DNA of 64,000 nucleotides from Bacteroidota bacterium. GTDB lineage: Bacteria > Bacteroidota > Bacteroidia > AKYH767-A > OLB10. The DNA lies in contig JADKFA010000001.1 of assembly GCA_016717725.1 (NCBI GenBank), forward strand, positions 200,437-264,436, written 5' to 3'. The notes under the pieces were generated by a model, which made no database searches, was not told the origin of the DNA, and saw nothing but the letters and a program-made list of their open reading frames with translations. How positions within the stretch are numbered: position 1 is the stretch's first letter; the number at the start of each line of letters is the position of its first letter. Both the position numbers and the translations under genes were made by a program. Below, one piece after another: positions 15,575 to 41,099 of the stretch.

Positions 15575-15687
15575 AACCCTGCAAAACTAAATAAAATCGA
15601 AACAAAAGAATCAATTCGACGATTCTTAATTAGCAGATCGAAGAGTTAATTAATCTAAAAAAACTAATTAACTCTTCGATTCACAAA

Positions 15688-18600: not shown

Positions 18601-21600
18601 TACTAATAAAAATTTTGTGTTCATATATACACCTACAGAAACAGATCCATCTGCATTAGAACCCACCGAATTAAAAGTCATACTATCAGCATACACAATC
18701 CAATTTAAATTTCCATTGGGATTAAATGAAGCTAGATATTGATAATCATAAGTCGAGTTACTAAAAATATTTTCACCTGCTGAAGTAATTATTCGATCTT
18801 TCGTTTTACCGATGATGACATAGTTTCCATTTACATCTTCTACAAAATTTGTAATAAAACTTGGACTTCCATTCAACAAATTAACTGCAGAAGTGAATCC
18901 TTGTGATGCATTATATCTCGTCATAAAAATACTTTTTTGCTGACCGTTGCTGTTTGCAGGTAGATTATTCGACAAAGTTGCATTTCCAAATTTCATTATT
19001 TGTCCTGCTGTAGGTGTCGTGATCATACCACAAATTAACATATCGCCATTACTTGCTTTGCTTGCCATTAAATTTTGACGTAAGGTGTCTACATCAAAAA
19101 ACTGATTTACTAATGGCACATTCGCACGAAACGGAACGGGACCTGTTACACCTGCACTACCGGTTCCGCCGAATGCATCAAAATCAAGAATTTTTCCGGT
19201 ATCATCCCATTCCATTACAAAAGCATCACCTTTATTATTAACGGTAGGCGTATACGTAAATCCACCTTTGGGTGTTTGCATCATACATCCATCCCAAACG
19301 TTTCTACCTACTGCATACATTCTATTATTGATGGTAATAAGATCTGTAAATTCTGCTGCTGGGCTTTCGATCGCCCATTGAAACTTTCCTTTACGGTCAA
19401 GCTTAATAAGTGCATTCTTATTTCGAATATAATTTCCTTGAAAATCCCAATATGCATTCGCTACCATATGAGCAGAAATATATGTATTTCCCAATCGATC
19501 GTACGTTATACCCGTAGGCAATCCTTGCATTCCCGACGAGTTGGAAAGTTGCTGAAACGAATTAAAATGAACCCAATTTCCTGCAGAATCTAATTTCCCT
19601 ACAGTTGGAATAAATAAGAAATTAGAGGAAGAAGCATTATAATTCATAAAATAAAAATTATTATAATCATCCATTCTCACTTTCAACGTTAACAAGGAAC
19701 CCCCATTTGAGGTATCCAATTTACAAGTATCCATGGATGATGCTACAGGAACACCATAGATATATACAGGACGCTTGACAATTTTCTCACACGTATTATT
19801 CAATTTTGCGGTGATAATAATGGTATCCACCATTTGAGTATTGAATGATACAGGTGTTGGATTTGCGCCACTAAAACTTGCAGGAGTAGCATTGGGTCCA
19901 AAATCCCAATCCCAACTATTAAATCCACTACCGGAACTGGTGATAGCGATGGGTTGATTCACGGCTCCCATCAATGTACCAGGTAAAATATTTACGGAAG
20001 CAAACATGTAGGTAAGTAAGTAGGTACCTCCAATTTGTGAAGTACAACCATGCGAAATCAAACTAGCAATTACAGTATGATTTTTATTGCTGCTAATAGC
20101 AGGGACAGGAATTCCAATGGTACCACCATTCCCTTGGATCTTTATAAAACTTTGAGTTCCCAAATAATACTCCCATCCCGGTTGAGAGTTATAAACCAAC
20201 ATATACGTAGTATCACCTGTACAAACGGTATCGCGGTAATACGCCGCCGTTACATTCGTTGCAGGCTTACTAATAAAAATTGAATCAATAACTTCCAACG
20301 TATCATCGCCACATACATTAGTAATGATTCCCCTAATTTTATATGGCTTAACTATCGTTTGATTGGCAGCTGTTGAAAGTACAATACTATTTCCATTTCC
20401 CATAGTTCCAGTACCAACGGCTATGTTACCATCATACACTCGATAAAAAACATTAGGTTGACTATTTGGAATAGTAAAATGCCCAGTACCGCCAGTACAG
20501 ATGGTGTCACGAATTACAGAAAATGGTTGTGCTACTGGAATTGGTGAAATGAAAAATGAAGTAGAGGATGTATCTGAAAAGCCATTATTTGAAGCAATGA
20601 GAGAAAGCACAACATTGCCACCTGGACTCAATACTAAGGATGGAGAATGCAACGTGCTTACCACACTTCCGTTCATCAGCCATTGATAAGTCCATGCAGG
20701 ATCACCTAGATTGTTTGGCTGAAAGGTGCCGCCTTCGCAATTGTTTCCTCCTGTTAAATTAAAAGATGAAATTGGCATCGGTAAGCCACCACCGTTAGAT
20801 GTGATTGCTACATAACCGCTATCGCCAGCTACCATTCCATTATTTGCGTCATAGAAAGTGATATCGTTCACCCATTTCACATTCGGCATATTGAACTTTT
20901 CCCAATAGGTACCTCCTGTGATGGTGCGATACACTCCATCATAAGCACCAACATAAACAGTGTCGGGGCTAAAAGTAAAAATGGTGCGAATGTTATACGC
21001 TGGCAAATTCATGGACACCCAAGTAAGACCCCCATCGGTTGATTTTTTCAGTGTACCGAAACCTCCAGCATATCCCGTATTTGTACCACGCGCAAATGAA
21101 ATATTTTCGATATTAGTTTGAAGACTGAGTACGGATGTCCAGTTAGTACCATTGTTCGTAGAGCGATAAATATTGGACCCTGACACCGATACAAACGTAG
21201 AACCATTTACCCATGAAACATCTTCAAGTAAGGTTGTTGTTCCAGAAGTAACCGCTACCCATGTTGTACCGTTGTCAGAAGATTTATATGCACGTCCTGC
21301 ACCACCTACGGCGACACCATTTCCAGCCCCGTCAAAATCCATAGCACTAATGTATCGCGGAAGTGCGCCACTGTTTGTGTGGTAATTATGCGACCATGAA
21401 GCTCCGTTGTTAGAAGTTCCAAAAATGATCAAATCATTTCCTAGATAAAAATATCCCGACGAGATAGCAGAATTAGGTCCGGTCACATGAATATCTTCAA
21501 AGCTACCGATGATCTGCGAATTTCCCAGCGTTGAATTAATGCCAGTCACAAAATTAAAAGTGGAACCACTGTTTGAAGAACGATAAATTCCATTCCAGGT

Positions 21601-21747
21601 CCCAGCCCATACATCCCCAGAGGGAGCATAACGAACACAGTGAATATGTTCATTAGTACCAGGGGATAATTGAGTCCATTGTGCAAAGCTTGTATTCGTA
21701 TTTACAAGCAGTAGAGCGACTGAAAGCAGTCGAAGGAAATGATTCAT
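15688..21747 (-). CDS. Giant secreted surface protein, about 2020 aa, with signal peptide MNHFLRLLSVALLLVNTNTSFAQ (an alternative upstream start lies at 21801). It has an N-terminal BNR/Asp-box beta-propeller (SSNSGSTF, TSNNGASWSH, SSDNGTTWVAV, STNNGTNWTSV, STDGGLTWVSM), a parallel beta-helix region, a dockerin-like Ca-binding loop (VDCNGDGLINLLD) and a T9SS C-terminal domain.
   Basis: ORF track; BNR motifs S-x-D/N-x-G-x-T-W and C-terminal domain (VRLFPNPTKSLSTILFNW...GIYFIELRCDNESKVLKMLKY) recognised by eye. Confidence 0.8.
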   Translation of the reverse strand: MNHFLRLLSVALLLVNTNTSFAQWTQLSPGTNEHIHCVRYAPSGDVWAGTWNGIYRSSNSGSTFNFVTGINSTLGNSQIIGSFEDIHVTGPNSAISSGYFYLGNDLIIFGTSNNGASWSHNYHTNSGALPRYISAMDFDGAGNGVAVGGAGRAYKSSDNGTTWVAVTSGTTTLLEDVSWVNGSTFVSVSGSNIYRSTNNGTNWTSVLSLQTNIENISFARGTNTGYAGGFGTLKKSTDGGLTWVSMNLPAYNIRTIFTFSPDTVYVGAYDGVYRTITGGTYWEKFNMPNVKWVNDITFYDANNGMVAGDSGYVAITSNGGGLPMPISSFNLTGGNNCEGGTFQPNNLGDPAWTYQWLMNGSVVSTLHSPSLVLSPGGNVVLSLIASNNGFSDTSSTSFFISPIPVAQPFSVIRDTICTGGTGHFTIPNSQPNVFYRVYDGNIAVGTGTMGNGNSIVLSTAANQTIVKPYKIRGIITNVCGDDTLEVIDSIFISKPATNVTAAYYRDTVCTGDTTYMLVYNSQPGWEYYLGTQSFIKIQGNGGTIGIPVPAISSNKNHTVIASLISHGCTSQIGGTYLLTYMFASVNILPGTLMGAVNQPIAITSSGSGFNSWDWDFGPNATPASFSGANPTPVSFNTQMVDTIIITAKLNNTCEKIVKRPVYIYGVPVASSMDTCKLDTSNGGSLLTLKVRMDDYNNFYFMNYNASSSNFLFIPTVGKLDSAGNWVHFNSFQQLSNSSGMQGLPTGITYDRLGNTYISAHMVANAYWDFQGNYIRNKNALIKLDRKGKFQWAIESPAAEFTDLITINNRMYAVGRNVWDGCMMQTPKGGFTYTPTVNNKGDAFVMEWDDTGKILDFDAFGGTGSAGVTGPVPFRANVPLVNQFFDVDTLRQNLMASKASNGDMLICGMITTPTAGQIMKFGNATLSNNLPANSNGQQKSIFMTRYNASQGFTSAVNLLNGSPSFITNFVEDVNGNYVIIGKTKDRIITSAGENIFSNSTYDYQYLASFNPNGNLNWIVYADSMTFNSVGSNADGSVSVGVYMNTKFLLVDALNQAYNVSPAASIGSYMLRFSATGAFQYGDNVNFYPIIDSRQDVCGNYHSLFKGGIPVGYSFIVSTLSMNNNCSPSCYAAYDPNSLDASALSLSISDTTINGPSNRNLFVKIMNNASLPITAMDIRYQINNNAIQNFAWNGNLSTGASDSILLTAYNFNRSYNHVKVWVNQVNGSTDNQQGNDTVKLSQIVCSAPLSGTYSLGCDTCYFDTFMSSSKTLKRCGVSEPVKIAVVPGTYYEQLTVDSIPFSSSTDSIVWTSANGIKESVVLDFAANNINYYRNTIRLNRAHYCSFENMTIQNTSAAPFDAMQLDHGCRASISVNASSRIRILNNVIHAPKRSNSAGSVAQAIVMVGIMNNVVIADNFIDGGEVGIEMNYVTTGGYDVFVLRNELWQTNEIQLSGLKRLLGDGNKIRYISSAGSGGTSLHMFQCDSFVVKNNLISSEVWGGASLYLTGCDCQTVSPCLVYNNSVGYQPSWLPFESATLSGLNLDIIHNSFGNGVAIGGGMNAPTFRFNNNVVRSNSSFAIDSYDEIDFIEMNHNRYISNGVPIKIINDNVDYDLGTWKAFSGLDLQSDSVTASFRTLSDMHLLNAVAMPGVPFAGITTDMDGEIRSVTTPTIGADEFSVATLLSSVWPGDCDSTKSVDNFDILQVGLNFNKYYTSRPTLSDAWVSQPSLLWNKQQGNGTNMNHVDCNGDGLINLLDTVAIFNNYGMSHPAANPQVQSISVGPDLSIFPVGTTFTGGDTVHLKLMAGTSGLMVNDIGALGFKLEIPPSLIVPNTFVVTYVNNWMCPDTNCILFANMDESTGVAAISMARKDGTGVTGFGEVADVSFVVNAGYSGNPTVNVNINPYQAFDPISTAMPFTTNGGTITIVNTSVEELSLMDGVRLFPNPTKSLSTILFNWKGNGTDKMSIRVLDLSGRIVGNPIQLIPHYGSNRVEVVAETFANGIYFIELRCDNESKVLKMLKY

Positions 21748-21924
21748 GATTTTGGTTTTGGTATGGTGAAGGTAGGGAAAAAGTTGTTTTGTTAAAGCCA
21801 AGAAAAATCAAGACCATATAAACAAAAATGCCCTCCGTCAAGACTTCGCTAAAGCTTTGTCTTGCGAAGCGCTAAAGCTATGGAGGATAAAAAAAGCCCT
21901 CCTTCGCCATAAAGTAGAAACTGC

Positions 21925-22119: not shown

Positions 22120-22196
22120 GGGTGGGCCCAGTAGGACTTGAACCTACGACCGACGGATTATGAGTCCGGCGCTCTAACCAACTGAGCTATAGGCCC
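22120..22196 (-). tRNA. tRNA-Met (anticodon CAT; elongator, initiator and Ile2-lysidine types cannot be separated by eye), 77 nt.
   Basis: Reverse complement GGGCCTATAGCTCAGTTGGTTAGAGCGCCGGACTCATAATCCGTCGGTCGTAGGTTCAAGTCCTACTGGGCCCACC. The acceptor, D and T arms pair, the T-loop is TTCAAGT and the anticodon loop is CTCATAA. Confidence 0.85.
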
Positions 22197-22260
22197 GATT
22201 CAATAGCCTTTGACCGATTGGTCGCTTGCTTATGGAATTTAAGAGGGACAAAAATAAAAC

Positions 22261-23460
22261 TTAAGCCGATACAGACTTCAAAACACCCAATTCTTTTCCA
22301 ACTTTTGTAAAAGCGGCGATGGCTTTGTCGATATGGTGGCGTTCGTGTCCGGCTGAGATCTGTACTCGAATGCGTGCATTCCCCTTAGCCACAACGGGAT
22401 AGAAGAATCCAACGACATAAATTCCTTCTTCTAAAAGACGGGATGCAAAATCTTGAGCTAATTTGGCATCGTAAAGCATTATAGGAACAATAGGGTGAGT
22501 TCCAGGTTTGATATCGAATCCCGCCGCCAAAATTTGAGTTCGGAAATAGTCGGTATTCTCCCATAATTTATCACGTAAAGCAGTGCTCGCACTCAACATT
22601 TTCAACACTTCGATGCTGGCACCCACAATACTTGGAGCCAATGAATTTGAGAATAAATAGGGACGAGAACGTTGGCGCAACATCTCCACAATTTCCTTTC
22701 TGCCAGAAGTAAATCCACCCATCGCACCACCTAATGCTTTTCCAAAAGTTCCAGTGATGATATCGATGCGACCCATCACATTATGATGCTCATGCGTTCC
22801 TCTTCCTGTTTTCCCCATAAATCCGGAGGCGTGACATTCATCCACCATGATCAGTGCATTATACTTATCCGCTAAGTCACAAATTTTATCAAACTGAGCG
22901 ATGGTACCATCCATACTAAATACACCATCGGTAACAATCATGCGATGACGCAGATGTTGAGTTGCTTTTAGTTGCTCCTCTAAATCTGACATATCATTAT
23001 GCTTGTAACGATAACGCTGTGCTTTACACAAACGAATACCATCAATGATTGATGCGTGATTCAACTCATCACTGATGATGGCATCTTGCTCATTGAGTAA
23101 TGGCTCGAACACACCACCATTTGCATCGAATGCAGCAGCATATAAGATGGTATCTTCTGTTCCCAAAAATTCAGAAACCTTTTTTTCCAATTCCTTATGA
23201 ATATCCTGTGTACCACAAATAAAACGCACACTACTCATTCCAAAACCATGAGTATCGATTGCATTTTTTGCAGCGTCGATTACACGTTGATGTGATGATA
23301 ATCCTAAATAATTATTCGCACAAAAATTGATTACTTCTAAGTTATTGGCAGTGATATCGGCACCTTGTGCAGTGCTAATTACTCTTTCATTTTTATAGAG
23401 TCCGGCTTCCTTAATTTCTTGTAATTCCTTAACAAGCACAGGTTTTAGCGTATTATACAT
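22261..23460 (-). CDS. kbl: Glycine C-acetyltransferase / 2-amino-3-ketobutyrate CoA ligase (PLP-dependent).
   Basis: Near-canonical Kbl N-terminus and core ([37 protein letters not shown]), 399 aa. Confidence 0.85.
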
Positions 23461-23557
23461 AGTTGTCTTTTAAGAGCATAAAGTTAAAGAATCTTCTTGA
23501 ATGAAAGAACTAATTAAAAATATACAATTATCTTTACTCCAATTGAAAATATTAAAA

Positions 23558-24928
23558 ATGAAAAAAATCTTCCTTCTTCAGATGATCTCTATTCTCATTC
23601 TGCTTTCTCCACATTCCTTCGCCCAAGGTCCTGTTTCCCTTCACTGTGCCAATATTTTGCCCAATGGAAACATCCAAATCAAGTGGGTCAATCCAACACC
23701 AAATGCCAACCTTATCTTTCGTGCTATTTATAAAGACGGCATAAATATCGCCACCATAAACGTTGACACCGTGACTACTTATCTGGATACGCAAGGAGAT
23801 GGAAATATACAGGCTACTTTCGACATTCTCAGCTCCTACCTCCCATCAGTTTTCAAAGCAATTACTCTCCACTATTTTCTAACGAGCGTAAATGATTTCA
23901 ACTGCTAATCCAGGACAGGCCACCTTAACCTGGAACATGTTGCCCTGCAATCCTCCTCCGAAATTGCAGCTTTTTCCGACTATCAAACAGGCAGTATGAC
24001 TCAACTGGGTAATTTCTGGCCAAATTTGACTGCCACTGAAACGATTACAGATTGCCAACATACTATTCACCATCAAATAGTGGTAACTGATGCGACTGGA
24101 TGCGTCTCTAACTCAAACATCACCACTGGTGTATTTTCTCAATTAGGAAATGTAGTATCTAATCCAGACTTGCGATGTGTAAGCGTTTTACCAAATGGAA
24201 ATGTCCAAATAACGTGGCTTACTCCCTCTGGATCTGCAACAGATTTTAACAATTACAAAATCAAAAGAAATAATGTAATCATTGATTCTGTTGGCACTTT
24301 TCCTCAAACATCCTTTATCGATGCCGGCATCAATGCCAATAATTTCAAGTATGATTACGAGGTAGTTTCCAATTCAGGTTGCTCCGGAAAAAATGCTGGA
24401 AGTAATTCAACCAATACCTTATCAAGTATTCATCTCGTCACCTCTACTCCTACCGCTTCCTCTTGTCAGGTAGATTGGAATGCAATGCCCTTGCTGTCAG
24501 GAGCTGGCTTTTACGAAGTAAACAGAGATATCGGAAGTGGATTTGTGTTAATCAACAACACTTTAAATCTAACTTATTTAGACGCCAATATTCCGGGACC
24601 TGCAACGGCATTATACAAAATCAGTGTGAACGACATTAGTGGTTGTATTTCCAGATCAAATGTTAGCAATCCGATTACTATTACTTCCCTGTTTGAAAAT
24701 TCAGGATACCCGAAACTTATTACCACTTTTCCAAATCCAGTTACGGATAAAATAAATTTTTCAAAACCAGTTCAACAACTAATTATTTACGATGTACTTG
24801 GTAAATGTGTATTAGTAGACACCAATGAAATTACTGGGCTGGATGTTTCTAATTTAAAAGTGGGTCGTTACACAGCGAAGATGATTGTTGATGATCAATT
24901 GGTCGTCATCCCTTTTATCAAAAATTAA
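23558..24928 (+). pseudogene. T9SS-secreted repeat protein (signal MKKIFLLQMISILILLSPHSFAQ; repeated module L[HR]C..(I/V)LPNGN(I/V)QI.W; C-terminal T9SS domain) interrupted by at least two frameshifts or stops between 23800 and 24000.
   Basis: Two co-oriented ORFs (23501..23908 and 23996..24928) share a repeated domain. A third frame in the gap reads TANPGQATLTWNMLPCNPPPKLQLFPTIKQAV. Confidence 0.6.
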
Positions 24929-25177
24929 ATGATCACCCACTTAATTCGAGACATATCTTTTACTGGTTTTAAATTGAACAACATTTTTATTTCTAGTTGC
25001 AATAACGTATTCGCCAATTTAGAAAAGGAAATCTCAGTAGCGGAGGCAACAGCATCGAAAGGCTAATAAATTCTATCTCTAAAAAATCTTAACGATGAGA
25101 TTCATTCTTCAGTGACTCTAAATTCTTAAGGGAAGTCAAATATTTATACTAATTTGGTCATTAAATATCAGTAAAAC

Positions 25178-25615
25178 ATGAAACACAATATTCTTTTTAT
25201 CCTACTTATTATGTTGTCCGCCTGCACTAAAAAAGGTGATCCTGGAGCACAGGGTCCTATTGGATTATCCGGAGAAGATGGAAATGCAAATGTATTTACG
25301 CATCATTTTAGCATTTCTCCTCAAGATTGGCTTTCTCAAGGTACACCTGGAGTTAATTCCATAAGATACTTTAAACTTCCCTTTTCAGAACTAGACAGTC
25401 AAATGGTATCCAACGGAGCAATAAATGTTTATCATTTTGAAAACAATTACTATAAAAGTTTACCGTTTAGTTGGAATTATGTAAGTACCGCTCTCAATTT
25501 TAATTTCCAATACACAATTGATACGCTCATGATAACAACTTACTATAGCAACAACTCTGCTGCTGGAATACCACAGAGTTTTAATTTTAAAGCTGTTTTT
25601 GTGGATGGAAATTAA
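25178..25615 (+). CDS. Small lipoprotein (lipobox LSAC) with a collagen-like GDPGAQGPIGLSGEDG segment; function unknown.
   Basis: Signal peptide with Cys, Gly-X-Y triplets; ORF track. Confidence 0.55.
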   Translation: MKHNILFILLIMLSACTKKGDPGAQGPIGLSGEDGNANVFTHHFSISPQDWLSQGTPGVNSIRYFKLPFSELDSQMVSNGAINVYHFENNYYKSLPFSWNYVSTALNFNFQYTIDTLMITTYYSNNSAAGIPQSFNFKAVFVDGN

Positions 25616-25706
25616 TAAATCTTAACCATAAAAGTAAAAATCAATTGACCTAAGACACATTTTTTTTAAAATAGAATATTGTTTACACTTTTCTCCTATA
25701 TACATC

Positions 25707-25746
25707 AAAAAAAAGAGGCTGAACCACAACTTGGTCCAGCCTCTTT
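25707..25746. terminator. Bidirectional terminator: A8-gaggctg-N15-cagcctc-TTT between convergent genes.
   Basis: 7-bp inverted repeat flanked by A and T runs. Confidence 0.6.
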
Positions 25747-25765
25747 AATTTAATAAATAATTTAA

Positions 25766-28700
25766 TTATGGAGTCGTAAAATCAAAAACCTCAATAGGAA
25801 CATCCATTAACAGTGGAAGCTTACTCCATGTTTCAATTCCATTTCGAGATTTCACAACGATGTAATATTGTTTAGAAAGTAAATTTCCGGGGAATACAAA
25901 TTGACCATTCCCAGAGGTGCTAAGCACTCCTTCGACACTACTTTCTAAATTATACGGTGAGATATTATTACGCAACTCAACTGTAATTGTATCACACAAT
26001 GTTGGATAAAGCAAGGGATCCACAACGGCTTGCATCAGACCTCCACCTAAATAATAACCTTCAATGAACGCTTTTAAATTAAGCTGAAGAGGACATAAAT
26101 ACATTAAAGTATTGACAGCAGCCGTTCCAGAACAACCATTCGCTGTAGTTACAGTAACTGCATAATTTCCTGGTGAGGCAATAGCAATAGATGATGTATT
26201 TGCTCCATTCGACCAGAGGTAAGTACCCACACCAGCGCCTGTAGAGAATGTTAAACCACTTCCGCTACAAAAATTAACACTTGAATTAGAAATCATAGCA
26301 ACACTATCGATTTGCATTCCCAGAAAACTGTTTGCAACTGCATCAACCGTATTATAATTCCAACTAATGACAACCGAACTACCAGCGTAACTACTCATAT
26401 CAAATTGTGCGGCCAACCAGTTTCCGTTAGATCCTGTATTGCTTAAATAACCTAACAAAGTAGAAGGACCACCATTCACACTAATATTGGCGCTTGCGAA
26501 ATCCCATCCTGAAGGAGGAATACCTGCTTCACCAGCATAAGCGTAATTAAAACGCAACTTAACATCAGTAGCATTAGAAGGAATAGAAATTGAAGGTGTG
26601 TAAATATCTCCAGCATTTGTTGCGCCTGTATTAAATGTACATGTACCATCCAAACCATAATACGCCCAATAACTAGGATTAGTAGGTGTACCCGAAACAC
26701 AAGCATTCGTTACGTGCCATAATCCTGTAGCCGACCATCCTGAAGGCATACTTCCCGTTTCAAAATTTTCGTAAAACAACAATTGCGCATTGTTCGTAGT
26801 AATACTTGGCGTTGGTGTTGGATTACTCGCTACAGCAGCCGTAGCACTGCTTGTACATGAACCAGAAGTTACAGTTACTGTATAATTTCCTGCAGATGTG
26901 ACCAAAATATTATTTGTATTTGCTCCAGTGGACCAAGCATAGCTAGAATAACCTCCGCTTGCATTTAACTGTACTGAACCACCTGCACAAAAAGAAAATC
27001 CATTATTTGAATTGATTGAAATACTATCAACTTGCATTCCCAAATTATCATTACCAATAGCATCTATTGTATTAAAGTTCCATTGCAACGTTACGGAGCT
27101 ACCTGCATACGGTGTTAAGTTCAATGAAGCATTTTGCCAATTACCAAAAGAACCTGTTGTACTCAAACTAATAACTTGTGTAAATGGACCTCCATTTATA
27201 CTAATACGCAATGAGGCATTATCATATCCTGATGGTGGCGTTCCTGCTTCTCCAAAATATACATATTTAAAACTCAATGTAGCGGAGGTAGCTGCAGTCG
27301 GAATGTTAACTGTATTGGAAGTTAGATCTCCAGAATTACTAGAACCATTATTAAAGGTACAAGAACCATCTATTCCGTAGTAAGCCCAATGCGTTGGATT
27401 TGGAGGAGTGCCTGATGTACAAGAATTCGTAACATGCCATAAACCAGTTGCTGTCCAACCTGGAAGGCAACATGCCCGATTCAAAATTTTGCGACATCAG
27501 TTTAATATTTTCCGACGAAGTAATTGTTGGAGGTGCAATTGGTGCTATTGATGTTGTTGCACTTGTTGATCCTGTACATCCATTTGCATTGGTTACGGTA
27601 ACCGTAAAAGTATTGGCTGTATTTACCACAATGGTTTGAGTAATTGCACCTGTAGACCAAATATAACTTGAAAATGAACCTGCATTTAAAGTTGTGGAAC
27701 CGCCAGCACAAAATGTTAAACTTCCTGTGATACTCGGTGTAGGTAAAGCATTAACTGTACCGCTTGCAAATACATTTTGAGTGGTAGCACCCGTAGAAGC
27801 ACAAGTAATATTTCCGGATGGAGTACCTACCGCTGTTGATGTCATTCTTACAAAAATTGTAGTCGTGCTTACACTTCCTGATGATGGAGTAAGCGGTAAT
27901 GAACTCGCGTATCCACTACCTGAAGTTAAAGAAACTTCAAATCCTGTAGGAGGCGTTACAATCAAATTTGAAGTAAGTCCAGTTCCAGAAACTGTAAATG
28001 ATTGCTGTGCAGAAGCAGTTCCTGAACACGCAGTAAATGGAGTTAGTGTACCTGAAGTAATAATAGTTGCAGCGGCACCGAAAGGACTATTTACTGGTCC
28101 TAGAATTTCGAAGTCATCTACCATAAATCCATCTGCTAAATAAGAACTCGCACCATATCCAGGTTTAACCGACAACACAAAACGGAAAGTAACTTCTCCT
28201 TGACCCACCAATGCAGGTACACCAGTAGTCAGATTATAAGTACACAAAGTATTATTTCCGGTTAAAGTCCATCCATAACGATCAGTAAAAATTGAAGCGT
28301 CAATTGGACAACCTGTTGATGGACCACGATTATACCAATTCGTAGCGTTTGCATCCGCATTTACTCCTAATCGAGTCCATGTTGCACCTCTATCCGTTGA
28401 ATATTGAAGTTGAACGGCAAGTGGTGCATTACAAAAAATCACTTCCATACTTCTTCTGAAACGCAAAGTATAAGTTCCTGCTGTTGTCATATTATAAGAT
28501 GGCGTTTGCAATGCGCATGCATAATCACCTTCTGTAACATCCAGCATCCAAATCGGTTTTCCAAGCATTCACTGGAGAGTTCACTGTTATTAAAGCATTC
28601 GATGGCACTCCGCTCTCCCATTTGTTGACACCTCCACTGATGGATTGCGAACCAAAATCATTTGGATTAATTTCAAATGTACCTCCATCAGAAGCGACAA

Positions 28701-31000
28701 CATAAGGCGTTCCTCTATTGGGAAGAATATGAATATATAAATTTTTTGTTAATACTGAAGCACCTCCATTAATGGTAAGTGTAACATTAAATTTTCCGGC
28801 GGTAGTATAACTATGTGTAGGATTCTCAAGTGTAGAAACGGGAGATCCATCTCCAAAATTCCATGACCATGAAGTTGCCGAATAACTATCACTCGTAAAT
28901 TGTATCGATTTATTTATATACGATAATTGTATATCTGAATGAAACAAAGAAGTAGGCACCGTAAATAAATCAGAGGCATACAAACCACGTCCATGTGTTG
29001 CTGCAATTACGTATTTATCACTTTGACGTATTTGCAACATATCAATTCTTACATTAGCTAAACCTGTATTGGTTGCCCCCAAACAGTTGCGCCTGCATTT
29101 AAATTATCGGTACTCCATACTCCCAATTCCAGTAGCTAAAATAACCTGATCATTATTATTGGGGTTAAAGAGTGCCCAACGAATAGGCATATCTGGCAAA
29201 TTACCTTCAACAGAAGTCCAACTGGTTCCACCATTTATACTTTCCCAAACACTATTTATTCCATAGTTAGAAAAAGTTACGAGTAAGTGATTATCGTTTC
29301 CTGTTTCCACTTCTACACAAGCAACATATGCGCCTGCAGGAAGTCCAGTACTAATATTTGTGATGGTAGGTGCACCAGTATGTGCATTATCTACTCGTAT
29401 TACACGACCATTATCACTTCCAAAGAAAACTTTATTTGCAGTATTTGGTGATACTTTCACTGCGGAAACCCATCCGTTCAAAGCTGAAGCGGTAATCGTT
29501 ACAAATGTAGAACCTGATTGTGGATTATCCCATCTTACGAATTGATTTGATGCACTAGCTGCGTACATTTTATTATTTGTATCATCATAATCAGAAGGAT
29601 TAATGAAAGATCCGCCAGCCGTTACCACATTGGTCCATGTATTTCCGCCATCACTAGAGCGATAATAATCGTTATATACATATTGGGTAAATTGAAACAA
29701 TGGTTGATCTTGATCGATATGACAAAAGCACCATCTCCACCTGTAGCTTGAGTAGTGGCTTGGTTACCTGAATTTACAAACTTATGGGTTCCGTTATCCT
29801 GCGCACCGGCAAGATAGTAAGGTGTTAGCGCTGTAGGATGCATGGCACAAGCGTAAAATTGTGCCGTCCGATAACTTAAGATTTATCACTAATGGTTGGC
29901 ATCACTGCATTTGCATCCGTACTTCGATAAACACCACCATCATTTACAAAATAAGCAATGCTAGAACTTCCATTTTGAAAAACAATATTATGTTGATCGG
30001 CATGAACATATTGAAAAGTAAATCCTCCATACCAATGACTCACTTGAGACCATGTTCCTGCACCATCCCCACTCACAAAAAGATCGATACCACCCACAAA
30101 CAATCTATCTTTATTTAGGATCTACAGCGCAATGTAAATCATACCATGCTTGTCCTCTAGAAAATCATCAGCAGGAATACCAGGATCAGCATCAGCGGGT
30201 TCCGTTCTTACCGTCCACGAAGTTCCCCATTAATTGTTCTAATAATTCCAGCAACAGCACCACCTGACTCCACAATAGCATACACATAATTCGAATCGTT
30301 AGGTGCACATGCCAATTCAATTCTGTTTCCCACTACTCCGAGTGTTTGCGCCGAAGCAAAAGTTACCCCAGCATTTATTGACTTATGAATAGAACCATTT
30401 AAAGAACTGTATACATTACCATTCGCGGCTACTTCTACATCATAACAAAAATTGCTTAAAGCACCTGTAATGGCTAGGCCTGTCCCAAGAACTTTTGTCC
30501 AAGTAGTTCCCCCATTTGCTGAACGCTGTAAACCTCCAGAGGATGTTGCTACAAAAACAACACCTGTACTATTGACAACTACTTTTTGACAATAATGAAA
30601 AGTGGAATTATTAGTTGATGCCAGTTGTGTCCAAGTGGTTCCTCCGTTAGTACTTTTAAAAACACCTAATCCTCGAATCGCATCAATATTATTATATCCT
30701 TCTCCAGTGCTGAAATACATGATTTGTGTATTTGTTGGATCATAAGCAATAGAAGAAATAGCCAAATTACTCAACAAATCATTTACTGGTGTCCAATTAG
30801 GAACCGCAGCATTTATGTTTGTAGTTTTCCATAATCCACCTCCCACACTGCCAGCAAAAACAGTATTGCCTGTTACATCATTAGGATCAACCATAATGCG
30901 CTCGTTCGTCCACCTTGATTATTTGGACCTTGTTCATCCCAACCCACTCCAGCTAATGGGCCAAAGTTTTGATGATTGCATCAATTGATCTTTGTATTTT
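25766..31000 (-). pseudogene. Frameshift-fragmented giant surface protein of about 1700-1800 aa if repaired. The N-terminus is a sortilin/VPS10-like BNR beta-propeller (WDEQGPNNQGGRTSA|MVDPNDVTGNTVFAGSVGGGLWKTTN; STNGGTTWTQL, SANGGTTWTKV, SSDGGNTWTNV, SINGGTSWTSV, STDRGATWTRL). It is followed by three copies of an MAM/choice-of-anchor-like module (QNFESGMLPSGWTATGLWHVTNSCTSG...) alternating with Ig-like SY(I/A/L)WS(T/N)GA repeats. At least seven ORF pieces are found (30208..30894, 29876..30103, 29622..29843, 29104..29700, 28525..29082, 27351..28568, 25766..27484), and the region up to about 31283 is further degraded.
   Basis: Consecutive co-oriented ORFs overlap in different frames. The junction at 27351-27484 was checked by hand: QNFESGMLPS is followed by a 1-nt shift, then GWTATGLWHVTNSC, which matches an internal paralogous repeat. 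Confidence 0.6.
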
Positions 31001-31560
31001 TAGCAACTAGAATCTTTCAGTTGGAACAAATCCCAAAGCAGGATCTTTCATCATCATAACATCTCTTTGGATGGCCTGTAATGCGCCATCTCTTTCTTTC
31101 AAATTTGATTTTTCATCTTTTCCTCCCTTTCACGATCTAAGGCCTTTCTCGTTCATTCCTCCTTTTGGCTTTAACTTCCTCTAGAAGGCACTTTTGGAAT
31201 AGGTTGCTGACAGAATCATGTTGAAAATTCACAAGGATGTAAGAAGATGGATAGTGAGATTAAGTGTAAAAATTTTTTCATATTGATTAAGATTAGATAA
31301 TTTTCAAGCTTAGATTAGACAATAAAATTAAATAGATAATACAACAAAAAATTAGATCATTTTTTTTTGCTTCATTCACAATTATATCGGATGAATGATG
31401 TTGCAATTTATCTAAAATTTATTTGAGTTCCTATAGCTATTAACTAAAAGAAATCATACATTTTAAACCCAATAAAATTGATTTATTTCATTGAAAATCA
31501 ATAACTATACAACAATTAAAACTAAAAAGATGTAAATAACCATTAAACCAGACTCCTTTT

Positions 31561-32667
31561 TTATAAACTATACCTCTTCCCTGCTTTCAATTTAATAGCA
31601 TTTTTCAATTCTAACTGAAGTAAGGTATTTGCAAGTTTAGAGAATGGTAATGCTGTTGCTGATGAAATTACATCAATACCACATTCCCCTTTTTCTTTAA
31701 GAACATCAACTACACGAATTTCATCTTCGTTCAATTCAAAAAATAATTGTGTTTGCTTAACTACTTGTTCTTTCTTTTTATCGTCGCTCCATCCCATCAA
31801 CCAAATTAAATCATGCGCACAAGTGATGAGTGCAGCTTTATTATCTCGGATATACTCATTGCATCCTTTACTAAACTCATCGCTTACTCTACCCGGAAAA
31901 GCAAAAACTTCACGATCGTAACCTTGCGCTAAATCAGCAGTGATGAGTGCTCCTCCTTTCGAACTCGCTTCCACCACCACCACTGCATCGCACATTCCAG
32001 CAACAATTCGATTTCGAGAAGGAAAATTCTCACGATCGGGAGGTGTTTGACTCGGATACTCTGTTAAAATCCCACCCTGTGATAACATCTTTCCAGCTAC
32101 CGTACGATGCAACTGCGGATAAATGCGATCCATTCCATGTGCTGTTACGCCGATGGTAGGAATACCAAACTGAAGAGCTGCTTCGTGGGCACAAATATCA
32201 ATTCCATAAGCCAATCCACTTACCATAGTCACTTCTAACCCTTGCAACTCCTCCACCAACTTTTTCGTTACCTCCTCACCGTTAGTGGTGGATGAACGAG
32301 TACCAACGATAGCAACAAATCGACCCAGATTCAAAGTGGCATTCCCTTTATAGTACAAAAGACACGGAGCATCGGCACATTGTTGCAAGCGATTTGGATA
32401 GGCATCGTCAGTATAAAATAAAACTTGAAGTTTATGTTTTTTCACAAAAGCTAATTCCTTTGCAGCCCGATCCATTATAGAAACATTAAATGCATTTTGA
32501 ATTCGCTTTGGTCCGACTCCCGGAATTTTTGATAATAGAGATTTCCGTTCCTTAAACACAGAAACAGCAGAGCCACAATGACTATAAAGTGCTCTGGCAA
32601 TGACAGGTCCTACGTTGGGTAATAAACTTAATGCAATACGATGCAATAACTCTTCTTCTGATTCCAT
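31561..32667 (-). CDS. dprA: DNA-processing protein DprA (Smf).
   Basis: Rossmann-like core with GxxVAIVGTRSST...GLAYGIDICAHEAAL...ASSKGGALITA; 368 aa. Confidence 0.85.
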   Translation of the reverse strand: MESEEELLHRIALSLLPNVGPVIARALYSHCGSAVSVFKERKSLLSKIPGVGPKRIQNAFNVSIMDRAAKELAFVKKHKLQVLFYTDDAYPNRLQQCADAPCLLYYKGNATLNLGRFVAIVGTRSSTTNGEEVTKKLVEELQGLEVTMVSGLAYGIDICAHEAALQFGIPTIGVTAHGMDRIYPQLHRTVAGKMLSQGGILTEYPSQTPPDRENFPSRNRIVAGMCDAVVVVEASSKGGALITADLAQGYDREVFAFPGRVSDEFSKGCNEYIRDNKAALITCAHDLIWLMGWSDDKKKEQVVKQTQLFFELNEDEIRVVDVLKEKGECGIDVISSATALPFSKLANTLLQLELKNAIKLKAGKRYSL

Positions 32668-32818
32668 ATTAAAATCACCGCCGGGATTGGATTAAAATTC
32701 ACCGATTGGGACACTGCAAATATAGATATGTGTACAAAAAAATACTAAATTATTAAACCAATTGATATTAATAAAAAAATGATGATCTTTTGGGCGAATT
32801 ATATTATGAAGTAATCAA

Positions 32819-35098
32819 ATGTCCCGAAACAAAAATTATATCCTTTCACTATTATGCCTCTTATTTTTCACAAATGCGTATGGGCAAGAAGGAATAATCA
32901 AAGGAAAAATACAAGATGCCATCACGAATGAATCACTCCCTTTTGCGAGTGTTGCGCTGAAAAATAGTGCAATAGGAACTATAGCCGATGCAAACGGCTA
33001 TTTTGAATTAAAAGTTCAATCTGGCAAAGCGACTCTTGTGTTTAGCTTTTTAGGATACACCCCCCTCGAAAAACAAGTTTCCATTGAATCCCTTCAAACC
33101 ATTGAACTAACGATTCATCTTAGTAAAAATGAAGTATCAAACACCTGGAAACCCGTTGTTATCACCGCTGGTCGACTTGAACAAAATCTGGAACAAACCG
33201 TAACATCGATGGAAGTTTTGCCATCAAGGTTATTAGAATCGCGCGTCGAAAATTCATTAGAAACGGCCATCGAACAAGTACCAGGCGTTACGGTTATTGA
33301 TGGACAAGCGAATATTCGAGGTGGTTCAGGATTTAGCTATGGTGCTGGCTCCAGAGTGTTGGTGATGGTGGATGACTTACCGATGTTAGCAGGAGATGCA
33401 AATGATGTAAAATGGAATTTCATACCGATTGAACAAATGGAACAAGTAGAAGTGTTGAAAGGAGCTTCTTCAGCATTGTTCGGATCATCTGCATTGAATG
33501 GTGTTATCAACATGCGCACTGCCATGCCCGGAGAAAAGCCGACAACAATTTTAACTTTGTACACTGGAATTTATGATGACCCAAAAGATCCACAAAAAAA
33601 GTGGTGGGGCAGCGAAACACAAATGACCAGTGGAGCCCATTTCGCGCACCGACAAAAATTTAAAAATCTTTCTGTTGTGCTGGGAGCACATGTTTATGAG
33701 GATGAAGGATATCGTCAAGGAGAAACAGAAAAAAGAATTCGTGCAAATACTAACCTACGTTATGCCTTCGAAAAAATTAAAGGACTAACGGTAGGACTAG
33801 CCGCCAATGTTCAACAATCGAAAGGCGGAACTTTTTTAATATGGCAAGACGATACCACGGGGGCATACTTACCCTTAGGAGGAATTGGATTGCCTGGATC
33901 AACATTAAGTGAATATACCTCTGAACGAGTTACAATTGACCCGTATATAATTTATAATCCAGGAAAATGGATTCACAAATTAAGAATGCGCTACTTCTTT
34001 ACAAAAAATGAAAACAATACTCAACAAGGTGCGACATCGAATTTATATTATGCAGAATATTTAGTTCAACGAAGAATTAAAGATAACATTAATATTTCCG
34101 TTGGTGCTTCTGCAAGTGAGACCGAAGTCAAAGGTGATTTATACGATAAACAAAGTGGACAAAATATGGCGATTTATTCGCAAGCGGATGGAAATTTTGG
34201 AAAACTGAATATTAGTGTAGGTGGTAGAATTGAACAAGGAAAAATTTCTGGCAAATCTTTCGATCCTCAATATCTCTTCAGAACTGGTGTGAGTTATCAA
34301 GCTTGGAAAGGTGGATTCATTCGTAGTTCCTACGGACAAGGTTTTCGCTTTCCATCCATTGCCGAAAAATTTATTCGTACACAAGTGGGAAGCATTGTAA
34401 TTTATCCGAATGATTCATTAGAAATAGAAAGAGGATGGTCGGCAGAAGTTGGAATTAAACAAGTCATTCAACTAAAATCGTGGCGCGGATTGGCCGATGT
34501 AAGTTACTTCATTACTGAATTTAAGGATATGATGGAATTCACTTTTGGTCCTTGGGGAAAACCAGGCATTGATCCCTTATTTGGCTTAGGATTTAAATCA
34601 GTGAATATTGGCAATGCACGCATCTCTGGTTTTGAAATAAACTTAGCGGGAGAAGGAAAAATAGGAAGTGTAGGTCAAACTATTTTGGCGGGTTATACTT
34701 GGATTGATCCCATACAAACCGATTTTTTAGCTTCGCGCGATACAGCTAGAAACTCTTCCAAAGAAAATATATTAAAATACAGATTTAGAAATTTGTTCAA
34801 GTTCGATTGTGAAACCAGCTACAAAAAACTTAGTATCGGCATCAGCGGTCGATACTATACTAATATTGAAAATATTGATGCAGCATTTGAAGGAACCATA
34901 CCTGGCGTTAAAACATATCGAGAGCAACAACCCAAAGACAATTGGATTTTTGATGCACGCATCGGTTGGCAAATCATTAAAATTTTACGTTGCAATTTCA
35001 TTGTCAAAAATGTGTTAAACGAAGAATTCATGACACGTCCAGCCGATCTTCAAGCACCAAGAACTTATTCTGTTTCACTCAATATGAAAATAGGGTAA
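32819..35098 (+). CDS. TonB-dependent outer-membrane receptor with an N-terminal carboxypeptidase-regulatory-like domain, plug and beta-barrel.
   Basis: Signal peptide, GIIKGKIQDAITNESLPFASVAL...NGYFEL (CarbopepD_reg-like), plug motifs and a C-terminal aromatic residue pattern; 759 aa. Confidence 0.8.
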   Translation: MSRNKNYILSLLCLLFFTNAYGQEGIIKGKIQDAITNESLPFASVALKNSAIGTIADANGYFELKVQSGKATLVFSFLGYTPLEKQVSIESLQTIELTIHLSKNEVSNTWKPVVITAGRLEQNLEQTVTSMEVLPSRLLESRVENSLETAIEQVPGVTVIDGQANIRGGSGFSYGAGSRVLVMVDDLPMLAGDANDVKWNFIPIEQMEQVEVLKGASSALFGSSALNGVINMRTAMPGEKPTTILTLYTGIYDDPKDPQKKWWGSETQMTSGAHFAHRQKFKNLSVVLGAHVYEDEGYRQGETEKRIRANTNLRYAFEKIKGLTVGLAANVQQSKGGTFLIWQDDTTGAYLPLGGIGLPGSTLSEYTSERVTIDPYIIYNPGKWIHKLRMRYFFTKNENNTQQGATSNLYYAEYLVQRRIKDNINISVGASASETEVKGDLYDKQSGQNMAIYSQADGNFGKLNISVGGRIEQGKISGKSFDPQYLFRTGVSYQAWKGGFIRSSYGQGFRFPSIAEKFIRTQVGSIVIYPNDSLEIERGWSAEVGIKQVIQLKSWRGLADVSYFITEFKDMMEFTFGPWGKPGIDPLFGLGFKSVNIGNARISGFEINLAGEGKIGSVGQTILAGYTWIDPIQTDFLASRDTARNSSKENILKYRFRNLFKFDCETSYKKLSIGISGRYYTNIENIDAAFEGTIPGVKTYREQQPKDNWIFDARIGWQIIKILRCNFIVKNVLNEEFMTRPADLQAPRTYSVSLNMKIG

Positions 35099-35103
35099 TT
35101 ATC

Positions 35104-35433
35104 ATGCGCATAAAAGGAATAAATGTGATTACTGCATGGCTACCCGTTGCTGGAATGGCTTTGTTTCCATTTATACTTTTTAAACGAAAAGATTTTTCAC
35201 TTTCGCCGTCATTGATAAACCATGAACGCATCCATCTGCAACAACAATTAGAATTATTGATTTTTCCATTTTACATTTGGTACCTAACAGAATACCTCTT
35301 TTTCCGAATGACTGGAAAGAAACATCAGCAGGCTTACCGTTCCATCTCCTTCGAGAAAGAAGCTTATCAAAATGAAAATGATATGAATTATTTAAAAACA
35401 AGAAAACGATGGGCCTATCTACGTCCATCCTAA
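35104..35433 (+). CDS. Small membrane protein carrying a lone HExxH motif (HERIH), starting 5 nt after the TonB-dependent receptor stop; function unknown.
   Basis: ATG at 35104 directly follows the receptor stop at 35096-35098. One hydrophobic segment, then SLINHERIHLQQQ. Confidence 0.45.
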   Translation: MRIKGINVITAWLPVAGMALFPFILFKRKDFSLSPSLINHERIHLQQQLELLIFPFYIWYLTEYLFFRMTGKKHQQAYRSISFEKEAYQNENDMNYLKTRKRWAYLRPS

Positions 35434-35500
35434 TTTCCAACTAAATACCTTTACCCTTCGAATAAATCCATTCTACTTACAAAGATCTATCTTTGCCCTT

Positions 35501-36265
35501 ATGAACTCCACCCCCGTTATTACTGTAAAGAACTTAAAAAAGAGTTACGATAAATTCGAAGCGGTCAAAGGAGTAAGTTTTGAAGTGTATGATTGCGAAA
35601 TTTTTGGATTATTAGGACCCAATGGTGCGGGAAAAACAACTACGCTGGAAATCATTGAGACGCTAAGAGAAAAATCGTCCGGTGAAATTACAGTGGCTGG
35701 ACTTAACGTTGATCAGCATCAAAACGAAATCAAAAAAATTATTGGTGTTCAACTTCAAGCAGCGGGATATTATCCCAGTTTAACTTTGACTGAACTCATC
35801 GACTTGTTTGCGGGATTATATAATGCCAATGTTGATCCGATGGAGATGCTAAAGCAAGTAGGATTAGAAGACAAACACAAAGCGAAATTCAAAGAGCTGA
35901 GTGGTGGACAAAAACAGCGATTTAGCATTGCAACAACTTTAATCAATCAACCTAAAATTGTTTTTTTAGATGAGCCCACAACAGGACTCGATCCACAAGC
36001 AAGAAGAAATCTGTGGGACTTAATTCGTAAAATAAGAGACAACGGAACTACGGTTGTCATCACTACGCACTACATGGATGAAGCCGAACAACTCTGTGAT
36101 CGCGTTGCTGTGATGGAAGCCGGAAAAATTATAGCCTTGGATGCACCCGATGCACTCATCGATCAATTGGTATCAACCGGATTTGAAAGGAAGAAGGAAG
36201 TGAAGAAAGCGAATTTGGAAGATGTATTTATTCAGTTGACAGGACATGAGTGGCGCGAAGGGTAG
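35501..36265 (+). CDS. ABC transporter ATP-binding protein (ABC-2 type).
   Basis: Walker A GPNGAGKTTT, signature LSGGQKQR, Walker B FLDEPTTGLD. Confidence 0.9.
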   Translation: MNSTPVITVKNLKKSYDKFEAVKGVSFEVYDCEIFGLLGPNGAGKTTTLEIIETLREKSSGEITVAGLNVDQHQNEIKKIIGVQLQAAGYYPSLTLTELIDLFAGLYNANVDPMEMLKQVGLEDKHKAKFKELSGGQKQRFSIATTLINQPKIVFLDEPTTGLDPQARRNLWDLIRKIRDNGTTVVITTHYMDEAEQLCDRVAVMEAGKIIALDAPDALIDQLVSTGFERKKEVKKANLEDVFIQLTGHEWREG

Positions 36266-36461
36266 CTGCTGGCTGCTGGCTTCTAGCTGCTGGATTTTGT
36301 AATTAGAAGATTAACTGAAGAAGAGCGCTTGCCCTGCTGCCGTACGAAGGACGTAATGAAGATGAGAGCGAAGAGCGGAGAAGCTAGAAGCTAATAGTCA
36401 GAAGCTAGAAGCTAGAAGCTAGAAGCTAGAAGCTAGAAGCTAGAAGCTAAAAGCTAAAAGC
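36263..36461. repeat. Satellite-rich intergenic spacer inside the ABC operon: TAGCTGCTGGCTGCTGGCTTCTAGCTGCTGG (36263-36293) and its inverted partner (AGAAGCT)n (about 9 units, 36376-36461).
   Basis: Read directly; gcttctagc is the reverse complement of the gctagaagc units, so the two ends can pair across about 100 nt. Confidence 0.9.
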
Positions 36462-36521
36462 ACACAATAGCGAGGAGAGTATTTATTATAACAAAAATTA
36501 ATTGCGTAAAAAAAAACTACA

Positions 36522-37622
36522 TTGAAAAATAATTATTCACAATACAGGGCCATGATGGCTATTGCTCGGGCGAGTTTTAGGTCTATCATGCGGAGTCCAT
36601 CGGCGGTAGTTTTTACATTGCTATTTCCATTGATCTTTATTTTGGTTTTTGGATTTATAAATGGCGGAGGCATTCGTTTAGATGTTGCTTTAGCTGGGGA
36701 AAGTGATTTAAAAAACCCAGTATTTGATAGTATTGCGAGTATGCAAGGAATTCATTTAGTTCCTGGATTAACGAAAGCAGAGATTAATCACAATTTACAA
36801 AAAGGCGATATTGATGCTATCATTAACATACAAAAAAGGTTAGCAGACAATACGATTTCGTATAACGTTGAAGTCACTACGAACATGGCTTCGCGTGAGA
36901 AGGGAATAATTATTCGATCCATGTTAGAACATTTAGTGGACAAAGCAAATTTGCGGGCCGCAGCGATGGAAAAACCAATGGTCGTTTTAAGTTCAAAAGA
37001 GATTCAAGTTCGAGAATATAAAACGATTGATTTTATTTTACCCGGACAACTTGGATTTTCGCTTCTTAGTTCTGGTGTTTTCGGAACAGCATTCGTATTT
37101 TTCAATTTACGACAAACCTTAGTCATCAAAAGATTTTTTGCAACGCCGATACGCAAACCTTTTATCGTTATGGGAGAAGCAATAAGCAGACTTGTATTTG
37201 CACTATTAGGAGCTGCCTTTTTGATATTAGTGGGCTATTTCGCTTTTGGATTTACACTTATTCATGGTTTTGCCACCTTCGCTACCATGCTGTTTTTGTC
37301 AGCCCTAGGACTAATTGTCTTTATGGGATTTGGCTTTGTGGTATCCGGAATTGCCAAAAGTGAGAGCACCATTCCTCCCTTAGCCAACATTGTCACCTTG
37401 CCTCAATTTCTTCTTTCAGGAACTTTTTTCGGGATTGAAAATTTTCCGGAATGGCTTCAACCCATCTGTAAAGTATTGCCTCTCACCTATTTAAATAATG
37501 CGATGCGACTCGTTGCCTTTGAAGGAGCTGGATTGAGCGACATTCTAGTTCCCTTGGCTATTATCTCAGCATGGGGTATTTTCATCTATGCATTAGCTGT
37601 TAAGTTTTTCCGTTGGGAATAA
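36522..37622 (+). CDS. ABC-2 family transporter permease (6 TM). An alternative start lies at 36552 (MMAIARA...).
   Basis: Multi-TM protein immediately downstream of the ABC ATPase; ABC-2 length and topology. Confidence 0.75.
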   Translation: MKNNYSQYRAMMAIARASFRSIMRSPSAVVFTLLFPLIFILVFGFINGGGIRLDVALAGESDLKNPVFDSIASMQGIHLVPGLTKAEINHNLQKGDIDAIINIQKRLADNTISYNVEVTTNMASREKGIIIRSMLEHLVDKANLRAAAMEKPMVVLSSKEIQVREYKTIDFILPGQLGFSLLSSGVFGTAFVFFNLRQTLVIKRFFATPIRKPFIVMGEAISRLVFALLGAAFLILVGYFAFGFTLIHGFATFATMLFLSALGLIVFMGFGFVVSGIAKSESTIPPLANIVTLPQFLLSGTFFGIENFPEWLQPICKVLPLTYLNNAMRLVAFEGAGLSDILVPLAIISAWGIFIYALAVKFFRWE

Positions 37623-37740
37623 ATGACGTAATGACATTAACTTTGCACAGGCATTCTAATTGATAGACTGAATGTGTAAAACAAAAAGTAGGAACAATCG
37701 TTTCTACCTATAACAACAAAAATTAAAAACTGAAAAAGCC

Positions 37741-40885: not shown

Positions 40886-41099
40886 ACTTTTCGATCTTTT
40901 GATTCTTTTACTTAGAGAATTGCTCTAATTTAAAATTCAGAAACCTACCTACTTAAACAGACTTATAGGCTATCTCTTTTAGTCAAAATTTGACATCAAG
41001 AACTTAGTAAATACTCACTTTTTCTATAAACAAAGAATAATTCACTAATTAATGATATAAATCAAAAGGCCTAAAAGCCATATTTACTATTTTCGCTCC

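Follow-up and report, generated by a model that had tools for sequence, protein, structure and literature searches.

Two surface-protein genes, each broken into several open reading frames (ORFs), lie between kbl and dprA in a contig of a Bacteroidota bacterium (GenBank assembly GCA_016717725.1, contig JADKFA010000001.1). The window is the whole stretch of 64,000 nucleotides that was analyzed (contig positions 200,437 to 264,436, forward strand), and all coordinates count from its first letter. The kbl-dprA interval holds three genes and one remnant. Its borders are conserved and both on the minus strand: kbl, encoding glycine C-acetyltransferase (22261..23460; NCBI MBK9636459), is the right border of a variable island, and dprA (31561..32667; NCBI MBK9636468) is the left one. 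Gene 1 (23558..24928) encodes a cargo protein of the type IX secretion system (T9SS), type A, with a signal-peptide-like N-terminus and a Por_Secre_tail, as judged from profile matches and orthologs. Gene 2 (31283..25766) is a giant surface-protein gene of 5.5 kb that, in alignment with its orthologs, proved to be split by 19 small indels. The original prediction took the two genes to be co-oriented; gene 1 lies on the plus strand and gene 2 on the minus strand, and hence the two are convergent. We consider it likely that most or all of the 24 frame disruptions counted in them are Nanopore R9.4.1 consensus errors left unrepaired by short-read polishing, not mutations of the organism.

Identity of the two broken genes

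As it stands in the sequence file, gene 2 is spread over separate ORFs of 572, 405, 185, 198, 73, 75, 42 and 228 aa plus 5′ debris, in line with an earlier count of at least seven pieces. Its stitched translation retrieved thousands of relatives in a protein search, and full-length intact orthologs were found in P0002 (1840 aa, 84% identity), P0003 (1840 aa, 82%) and P0001 (1908 aa, 78%), the identity covering 99-100% of the length of the window gene. The contigs that carry them (loci L001-L003) are syntenic, in the order dprA-giant-kbl, and the comparison with the orthologous locus in relatives that had been proposed at the outset thus yielded three intact copies. After indel correction, gene 2 is an uninterrupted ORF of 1841 aa with zero nonsense codons, and an intact ortholog in Logan contig L090 has the same length. 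The extreme 5′ end (30900-31283), first thought unreadable in any frame, gives an ordinary N-terminus with a signal peptide that runs colinear with those of the orthologs, once ten indels are removed. By eye, the corrected N-terminus (MKKFLHLISLSIFL...) is signal-peptide-like.

The domain content of gene 2 was read from its intact ortholog P0002, which scored 44 bits for PF15902 (Sortilin-Vps10; cut-off 33), 44.7 for PKD_4, 36.9 for PKD and 30.8 for InhA-like_MAM (cut-off 26.9). The Sortilin-Vps10/BNR propeller and PKD are thus both present above the gathering score, and the earlier description of a sortilin/VPS10-like BNR propeller with MAM-like and Ig-like modules holds for the intact protein, with PKD to be added. 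The T9SS label given to the locus fared less evenly: it is borne out for gene 1 by PF18962 and TIGR04183, but the intact ortholog of the giant gene has no detectable sorting domain. P0002 showed no match to PF18962, TIGR04183 or another T9SS C-terminal domain at E<=0.01 in Pfam and NCBIfam, and PF18962 is also absent from the precomputed Pfam lists of P0001-P0003, though present in relatives of ~1200 aa. These relatives are Bacteroidota surface proteins with BNR/Sortilin-Vps10-like and PKD domains, many of which carry a T9SS type A C-terminal domain, and thousands of them share 55-73% identity with the first ~1000 aa of gene 2. The window gene and its orthologs of 1840-1908 aa differ from that family in a C-terminal extension of ~800 aa, in tandem MAM-like/Ig-like modules of ~240 aa, and in a different C-terminus with no Por_Secre_tail match. 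Direct repeats 720-721 nt apart, with 65-82% identity, run through the 3′ part of the gene (26147-27490) and show that this part consists of the tandem ~240-aa modules, MAM-like plus Ig-like.

For gene 1, the frame-corrected translation matched PF18962 (31.2 bits; cut-off 27) and TIGR04183 (24.8 bits; cut-off 23) at residues 395-460, and its 310-aa fragment is named "T9SS type A sorting domain-containing protein" by NCBI. The N-terminus, MKKIFLLQMISILILLSPHSFAQ, is signal-peptide-like on inspection by eye. Intact orthologs of ~461-480 aa occur at four loci (L005, L006, L088 and L089).

Two further elements, an intact lipoprotein gene and a remnant of the dprA 3′ end, stand between the broken genes and were absent from the original prediction. 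The lipoprotein gene (25178..25615, plus strand; 145 aa; NCBI IPO63_01070) has a counterpart that adjoins the intact giant gene in L090. An inverted repeat at 25699..25759, with 28-nt arms and a 5-nt loop, was found by repeat search between the convergent lipoprotein gene and gene 2; flanked by A/T runs, it is probably a bidirectional terminator. The remnant (24924..25110, minus strand) is a decayed second copy of the dprA 3′ terminus, its last ~115-190 nt ("...FSKLANTLLQLEIK..."). A direct-repeat search of the island flanks missed it, and translation with local alignment revealed it. This decayed copy ("DAVASATEISFSKLANTLLQLEIK...") matches the live one at 31561-31680 with ~70% identity along ~115 nt, with ~30% substitution and one indel across that length.

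Frame disruptions and their distribution

A DNA alignment with the three intact syntenic orthologs placed 19 window-specific frame-breaking indels in gene 2 (14 deletions of 1-2 nt and five insertions of 1 or 4 nt), and 0 of the 19 are common to any ortholog in the alignment. Cluster A (30895..31237, minus strand) comprises ten indels, at 31237 (-2), 31217 (-1), 31173 (+4), 31144 (-1), 31115 (+1), 31094 (-2), 31014 (-1), 30997 (-1), 30970 (-2) and 30895 (-1), with a net change of -6 nt. Five deletions form cluster B (29728..30227, minus strand), at 30227 (-1), 30165 (-1), 30116 (-2), 29880 (-1) and 29728 (-1), again with a net change of -6 nt; apart from the deletions, its stretches are 83-95% identical to L003. 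Pair C (29077..29130, minus strand) joins an insertion at 29130 (+1, G to GG) to a deletion at 29077 (-1, a T lost from GGGGTGC), the net change being 0. Single 1-nt insertions on the same strand occur at 28543 (GATGC-GGATG to GATGCTGGATG) and at 27465 (GCC-TCC to GCCTTCC); the latter is the last disruption, and from there to the stop codon the remaining 1.7 kb of the gene is free of indels. In simulation, the presence of 10 of the 19 indels within 400 bp had p<5e-5, as did the presence of 18 of the 19 in the 5′ half.

The lesions of gene 1 are tightly packed as well. Compared with L005, L006 and L088, it has at least five frame-breaking deletions at 23848-23946 and two neighbouring 3-nt deletions. 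Set against its closest relative, L088, it lost 15 nt by ~10 separate deletions of 1-3 nt inside 175 nt, with no insertions; the deletion-only patch lies at 23813..23965 (plus strand). In one place, CCCTATTCAGGTTTTTC has become CCCATCAGTTTTC through four single-base deletions within 14 nt, with all other bases identical. The other 1.2 kb of the gene contains zero indels, and a simulation gave p=1.3e-4 for five frame-breaking deletions within 98 bp. Outside the patch, the window-specific ratio of nonsynonymous to synonymous substitutions (N/S) is 25/43, vs. 21/33 and 70/102 in relatives, with no sign of relaxed selection there.

The claim that the locus contains at least 10 frame disruptions was right in that the disruptions are real in the sequence file, and understated in its count, since we found 24 (19 in gene 2 and at least five in gene 1). 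All 24 are 1-4 nt long, and 19 are deletions and five are insertions. There is no plausible in-vivo process behind the micro-burst pattern of gene 1, and near-raw Nanopore sequence does produce it. Were the indels real, a strain-variable adhesin island would be in decay by concentrated bursts of 1-2-nt deletions, as many as ten in 175 nt, with hardly any substitutions and each burst restoring the frame, which we regard as doubtful. If true, this would mean an unrecognised, patch-wise deletion-prone process acting on dispensable surface-protein genes just before their excision, for example through error-prone repair tracts at a recombination hotspot.

The restoration of frame calls for a separate comment. 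The sums of the clusters are all multiples of three (A, -6; B, -6; C, 0; gene 1, -9), so that the frame is restored four times, and surface proteins are a class that often varies in phase. A phase-variable contingency locus, programmed ribosomal frameshifting or a localised hypermutation shower might therefore come to mind, and yet we find biological frame-switching of this kind scarcely credible. Main-frame stops occur inside every cluster, and no single or slipped frame reads through; as every frame has stops inside the clusters, programmed frameshifting and phase variation were rejected. Most of the sites are not repeat tracts, no slippery or repeat motif was seen at them, and five intact orthologs are without such a structure. 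Since the stops exclude read-through, we treat the multiple-of-three sums as a post hoc coincidence with a chance probability of ~1%.

The contrast with the rest of the window, which had been pointed out originally, stood up to comparison. Alignment of ~27 kb of coding DNA on the flanks with that of relatives left one candidate frame-breaking indel at most, and no window-specific frame-breaking indel was found against the relatives in the coding sequence of 15015-21811, 22122-23460, 31561-38406 and 38725-45417. The candidate lies in 9192-12445, where A6 has become A7 at 11081, at the 5′ end of a rhomboid protease gene. Two more genes are split, one for a T9SS beta-helix protein at ~14369-14388 (a 121-aa signal-peptide piece plus 601 aa) and one for an amidohydrolase at ~48075-48126 (a 183-aa signal-peptide piece plus 849 aa). 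These three isolated frameshifts are probably residual assembly errors. The rhomboid gene also has, in its C-terminal tail (11739-11777), a 39-nt in-frame insertion relative to L003 that duplicates an acidic "DLKMDQFENLKM"-like motif. T9SS type A cargo is dense in the window as a whole (9221-10981, 12583-14388, 38867-40885 and 53616-57518), with Por_Secre_tail matches in at least seven ORFs; those of the three tandem ORFs at 53616-57518 score ~25 bits, just under the Pfam cut-off of 27.

The variable island between dprA and kbl

A scan of species-representative genomes with DprA yielded four close relatives. The dprA-kbl interval (23506-31560) was found in five arrangements in all, in genomes whose flanks are 80-87% identical, and with at least four gene contents (no gene, gene 1 alone, the giant gene alone, and the giant gene with the lipoprotein gene). 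Thus dprA directly adjoins kbl in L007; gene 1 alone separates the two in L006, L088 and L089; the giant gene alone does so in L001, L003 and L004; and in L090 dprA is followed by the giant and lipoprotein genes. The window is a composite of these, with the dprA 3′ remnant at an old dprA|gene 1 junction, and the giant and lipoprotein block between the remnant and the live dprA. The older junction marked by the remnant is the one seen in L006 and L088, and the remnant therefore suggests that the giant and lipoprotein genes were inserted via recombination at dprA. One of the records used here, L007 (CALQEU020000020.1), is titled "MAG: Bifidobacterium breve" (MAG, metagenome-assembled genome) yet is syntenic with the window and 83-87% identical to it; the record is mislabelled or mis-binned.

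Gene 2 itself is a mosaic, with patches 93-95% identical to L003 in 30100-29050 and closest similarity to L002 (up to 94%) in 28560-27480. By these similarities, the mosaic speaks for recombination among lineages at the species level, or possibly for polishing with reads of another species. Taken with the varied gene contents and the remnant at the old junction, it presents the dprA-kbl interval as what appears to be an actively recombining accessory locus, similar to strain-variable surface-protein islands known between housekeeping genes. It differs from such islands in that no integrase, tRNA or insertion sequence element was seen in the interval, and its turnover seems to proceed through homologous or illegitimate recombination at dprA.

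Consensus error versus gene decay

The provenance of the sequence bears directly on the origin of the indels. The ORFs of the window match NCBI proteins MBK9636459-MBK9636471 (locus tags IPO63_...) exactly and belong to a 335,535-bp contig of a MAG. Exact entries exist for kbl, both gene 1 fragments, the lipoprotein, DprA, the TonB receptor and the ABC ATPase, and one fragment of gene 2, the ORF at 30208..30894 (228 aa), is identical to MBK9636467.1 (IPO63_01095). The accession and locus-tag series is common to IPO01, IPP48 and IPP71, to JADKIE and JADKJB, and to the "tig..." contigs of the relatives L004 and L008, from which we infer that the window belongs to the Danish activated-sludge MAG set. 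That set was built with Canu 1.8 (corMinCoverage=0) on Nanopore reads, followed by Racon, two rounds of Medaka (r941 model) and one Illumina Racon round. R9.4.1 assemblies are known to retain homopolymer indels that break up gene calls, the "IDEEL" problem (PMC9262707).

Error of this type could be followed in the same batch. L004 (JADJMG010000014.1) is a "tig" contig of a species-representative MAG, and against L003, an independent, 99%-identical metagenome scaffold from ENA, it carries seven one-base deletions in 12 kb. All seven fall at base runs or repeated bases, and its copy of the giant gene is broken by three. As the closest GTDB relative, L004 was examined for lesions in common with the window and has none; its own three breaks are absent from L003. 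Two other MAGs of the batch carry homologs that are divided among 3-4 ORFs on long contigs. Within the batch, L086 (JADKJB010000005.1) has a run of seven small co-oriented ORFs of 49-201 aa with faint MORN matches at 1829-4334, and a BNR/PKD homolog in four ORFs at 6001-9732, so that the "shattered" look recurs in an unrelated genome.

Genuine recent pseudogenisation is the principal competing explanation: the giant gene, and perhaps gene 1, would have lost function and would be gaining small, deletion-biased indels ahead of outright deletion. Bacterial pseudogenes, including those of Rickettsia and Mycobacterium leprae, decay with a deletional bias. The window resembles such decay in its ratio of deletions to insertions (19:5), in the accessory and dispensable nature of the gene, in the loss of the gene from sister genomes, and in a partly raised rate of nonsynonymous change. 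It departs from it in the absence of nonsense substitutions and of medium or large deletions, in extreme clustering, in conservation of the amino-acid sequence between the indels, and in having no lesion in common with a relative. Specifically, zero nonsense substitutions were found in the 1841 corrected codons of gene 2, where the estimated neutral substitutions would predict ~3, and none of the 24 events exceeds 4 nt; the mixture of nonsense codons and larger deletions that marks a true pseudogene is thus not seen here. Neutral decay of the whole gene would not be expected to cluster the indels in the 5′ half, to spare the last 1.7 kb or to leave the 3′ half unrelaxed. Nor does decay sit well with gene 1, which is unrelaxed outside one 175-nt patch. 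The dprA remnant, the only certainly dead sequence in the island, has the opposite ratio of substitutions to indels, being heavily substituted and indel-poor. Finally, frame disruptions that look exactly like these are a known product of the assembly technology.

Several observations weigh against consensus error, and most of them speak for decay. In the 5′ half of gene 2, the window-specific N/S is 63/56 (1.12), vs. 0.50 in the orthologs (Fisher p=2e-4), and outside the indel clusters of that half it is still 34/42, vs. ~0.45 (p ~0.02), which suits a real relaxation of constraint. An estimated ~59 neutral-like substitutions lie beside 17 indels there. Substitutions thus exceed indels by ~3:1, which is an unusual ratio for Nanopore error and would suit real mutation. 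About one third of the indels lie in homopolymers of at least 3 bases, unlike most of the residual errors of L004, and since the indels are largely off homopolymers, the patches must be of near-raw-read quality, beyond ordinary residual error. The flanks are near-perfect, which means that polishing was good elsewhere and that a local failure has to be assumed. Only two accessory genes are affected by the disruptions, and the island that holds them is missing from relatives in part (L006 and L088, without the giant gene) or as a whole (L007). As gene 2 has been deleted in these three sister species, it is dispensable in the clade. Lastly, no independent assembly of the same species was found in the metagenome, genome and protein collections searched. 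Exact-match look-ups of kbl, DprA and the 228-aa fragment gave no record, a degenerate DNA pattern spanning the 27465 site had 0 matches among metagenome contigs, and a protein-guided metagenome scan for the same species returned distant matches only. In 90%-identity clusters of seven window proteins no member exceeded 95.5% amino-acid identity; the clusters have one member, and amino-acid identity to the best protein relatives is 88-95%. As candidates for the same species, Logan contigs L088, L089 and L090 were rejected at 80-86% nucleotide identity.

Whole-gene dN/dS of gene 2 is 0.09-0.12, and in its 3′ half N/S does not differ significantly from that of the relatives. With the evidence on both sides before us, we consider pseudogenisation unlikely, albeit the strongest of the alternatives. 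A combination of the two is very unlikely in our estimation. It would hold that the giant gene is under relaxed or diversifying selection and contains perhaps one or a few real inactivating indels, to which errors add most of the others. The raised N/S outside the clusters would then reflect selection, the burst-like patches and the result for gene 1 would reflect error, and the mosaic similarity would fit an actively recombining surface-protein gene. However, the out-of-cluster N/S differs only at p ~0.02 and could be ordinary variation among surface-protein lineages, and individual indels are not assignable to a real or an error class from the sequence alone.

For consensus error, the likeness to the known R9.4.1 indels lies in small deletion-biased events, in short co-linear ORFs, in a perfect ORF on correction, and in deletions of a sister MAG in the same gene. 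The departure is that typical errors of this chemistry are isolated and bound to homopolymers, whereas ~2/3 of those in the window are off homopolymers, in dense patches of 100-500 bp within a well-polished contig. Such patches in a polished contig would imply a consensus that is locally unpolished and of very low coverage. Of the two possibilities originally offered, a decaying adhesin or a low-quality assembly patch, the patch is thus favoured by provenance, lesion spectrum and micro-bursts, and decay keeps some support from the N/S of the 5′ half and the losses in sister genomes. Both genes are probably intact in the cell and would encode a surface protein of 1841 aa (BNR propeller, PKD, MAM-like) and a T9SS cargo protein of ~460 aa.

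How consensus error could be so local may be explained by the island itself. Given its variability between species, the dprA-kbl island may be carried by only part of a mixed population. Canu, run without a minimum coverage, could thread the contig through the island on very few long reads. In the one Illumina Racon round, the worst stretches might then have drawn too few short reads for correction, so that read-level error would be kept there and repaired in the neighbouring sequence, leaving 100-500-bp patches of read-level error between well-polished stretches. As the island is structurally variable among relatives, mixed strains are plausible at this place and would be expected to give thin or ambiguous coverage, and low or mixed coverage is a plausible cause of the errors. 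Other local causes were considered and rejected. Mis-polishing driven by a paralog would require similar sequence, and the island has none elsewhere in the window, save its own 720-nt module repeats; no methylation motif or other common context was evident at the indel sites; and the indels bear no clear relation to the borders of the mosaic blocks defined by similarity to L003. Transition/transversion and GC-to-AT bias of the window-specific substitutions were uninformative.

The case may serve as a worked example of how error can be separated from decay without reads, by lesion spectrum, absence of nonsense codons, micro-clustering, N/S by lineage, and the differences between a sister long-read MAG and a near-identical independent metagenome scaffold. 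If the indels are real, the locus would capture the loss of an adhesin gene under way, in a clade whose neighbours have already deleted the gene, which is not a new principle. If they are errors, pseudogene counts, pangenomes and adhesin inventories drawn from this genome or its batch would be distorted at strain-variable loci, and the MAG annotation would list about eight "hypothetical protein" fragments in place of what are probably two intact surface-protein genes.

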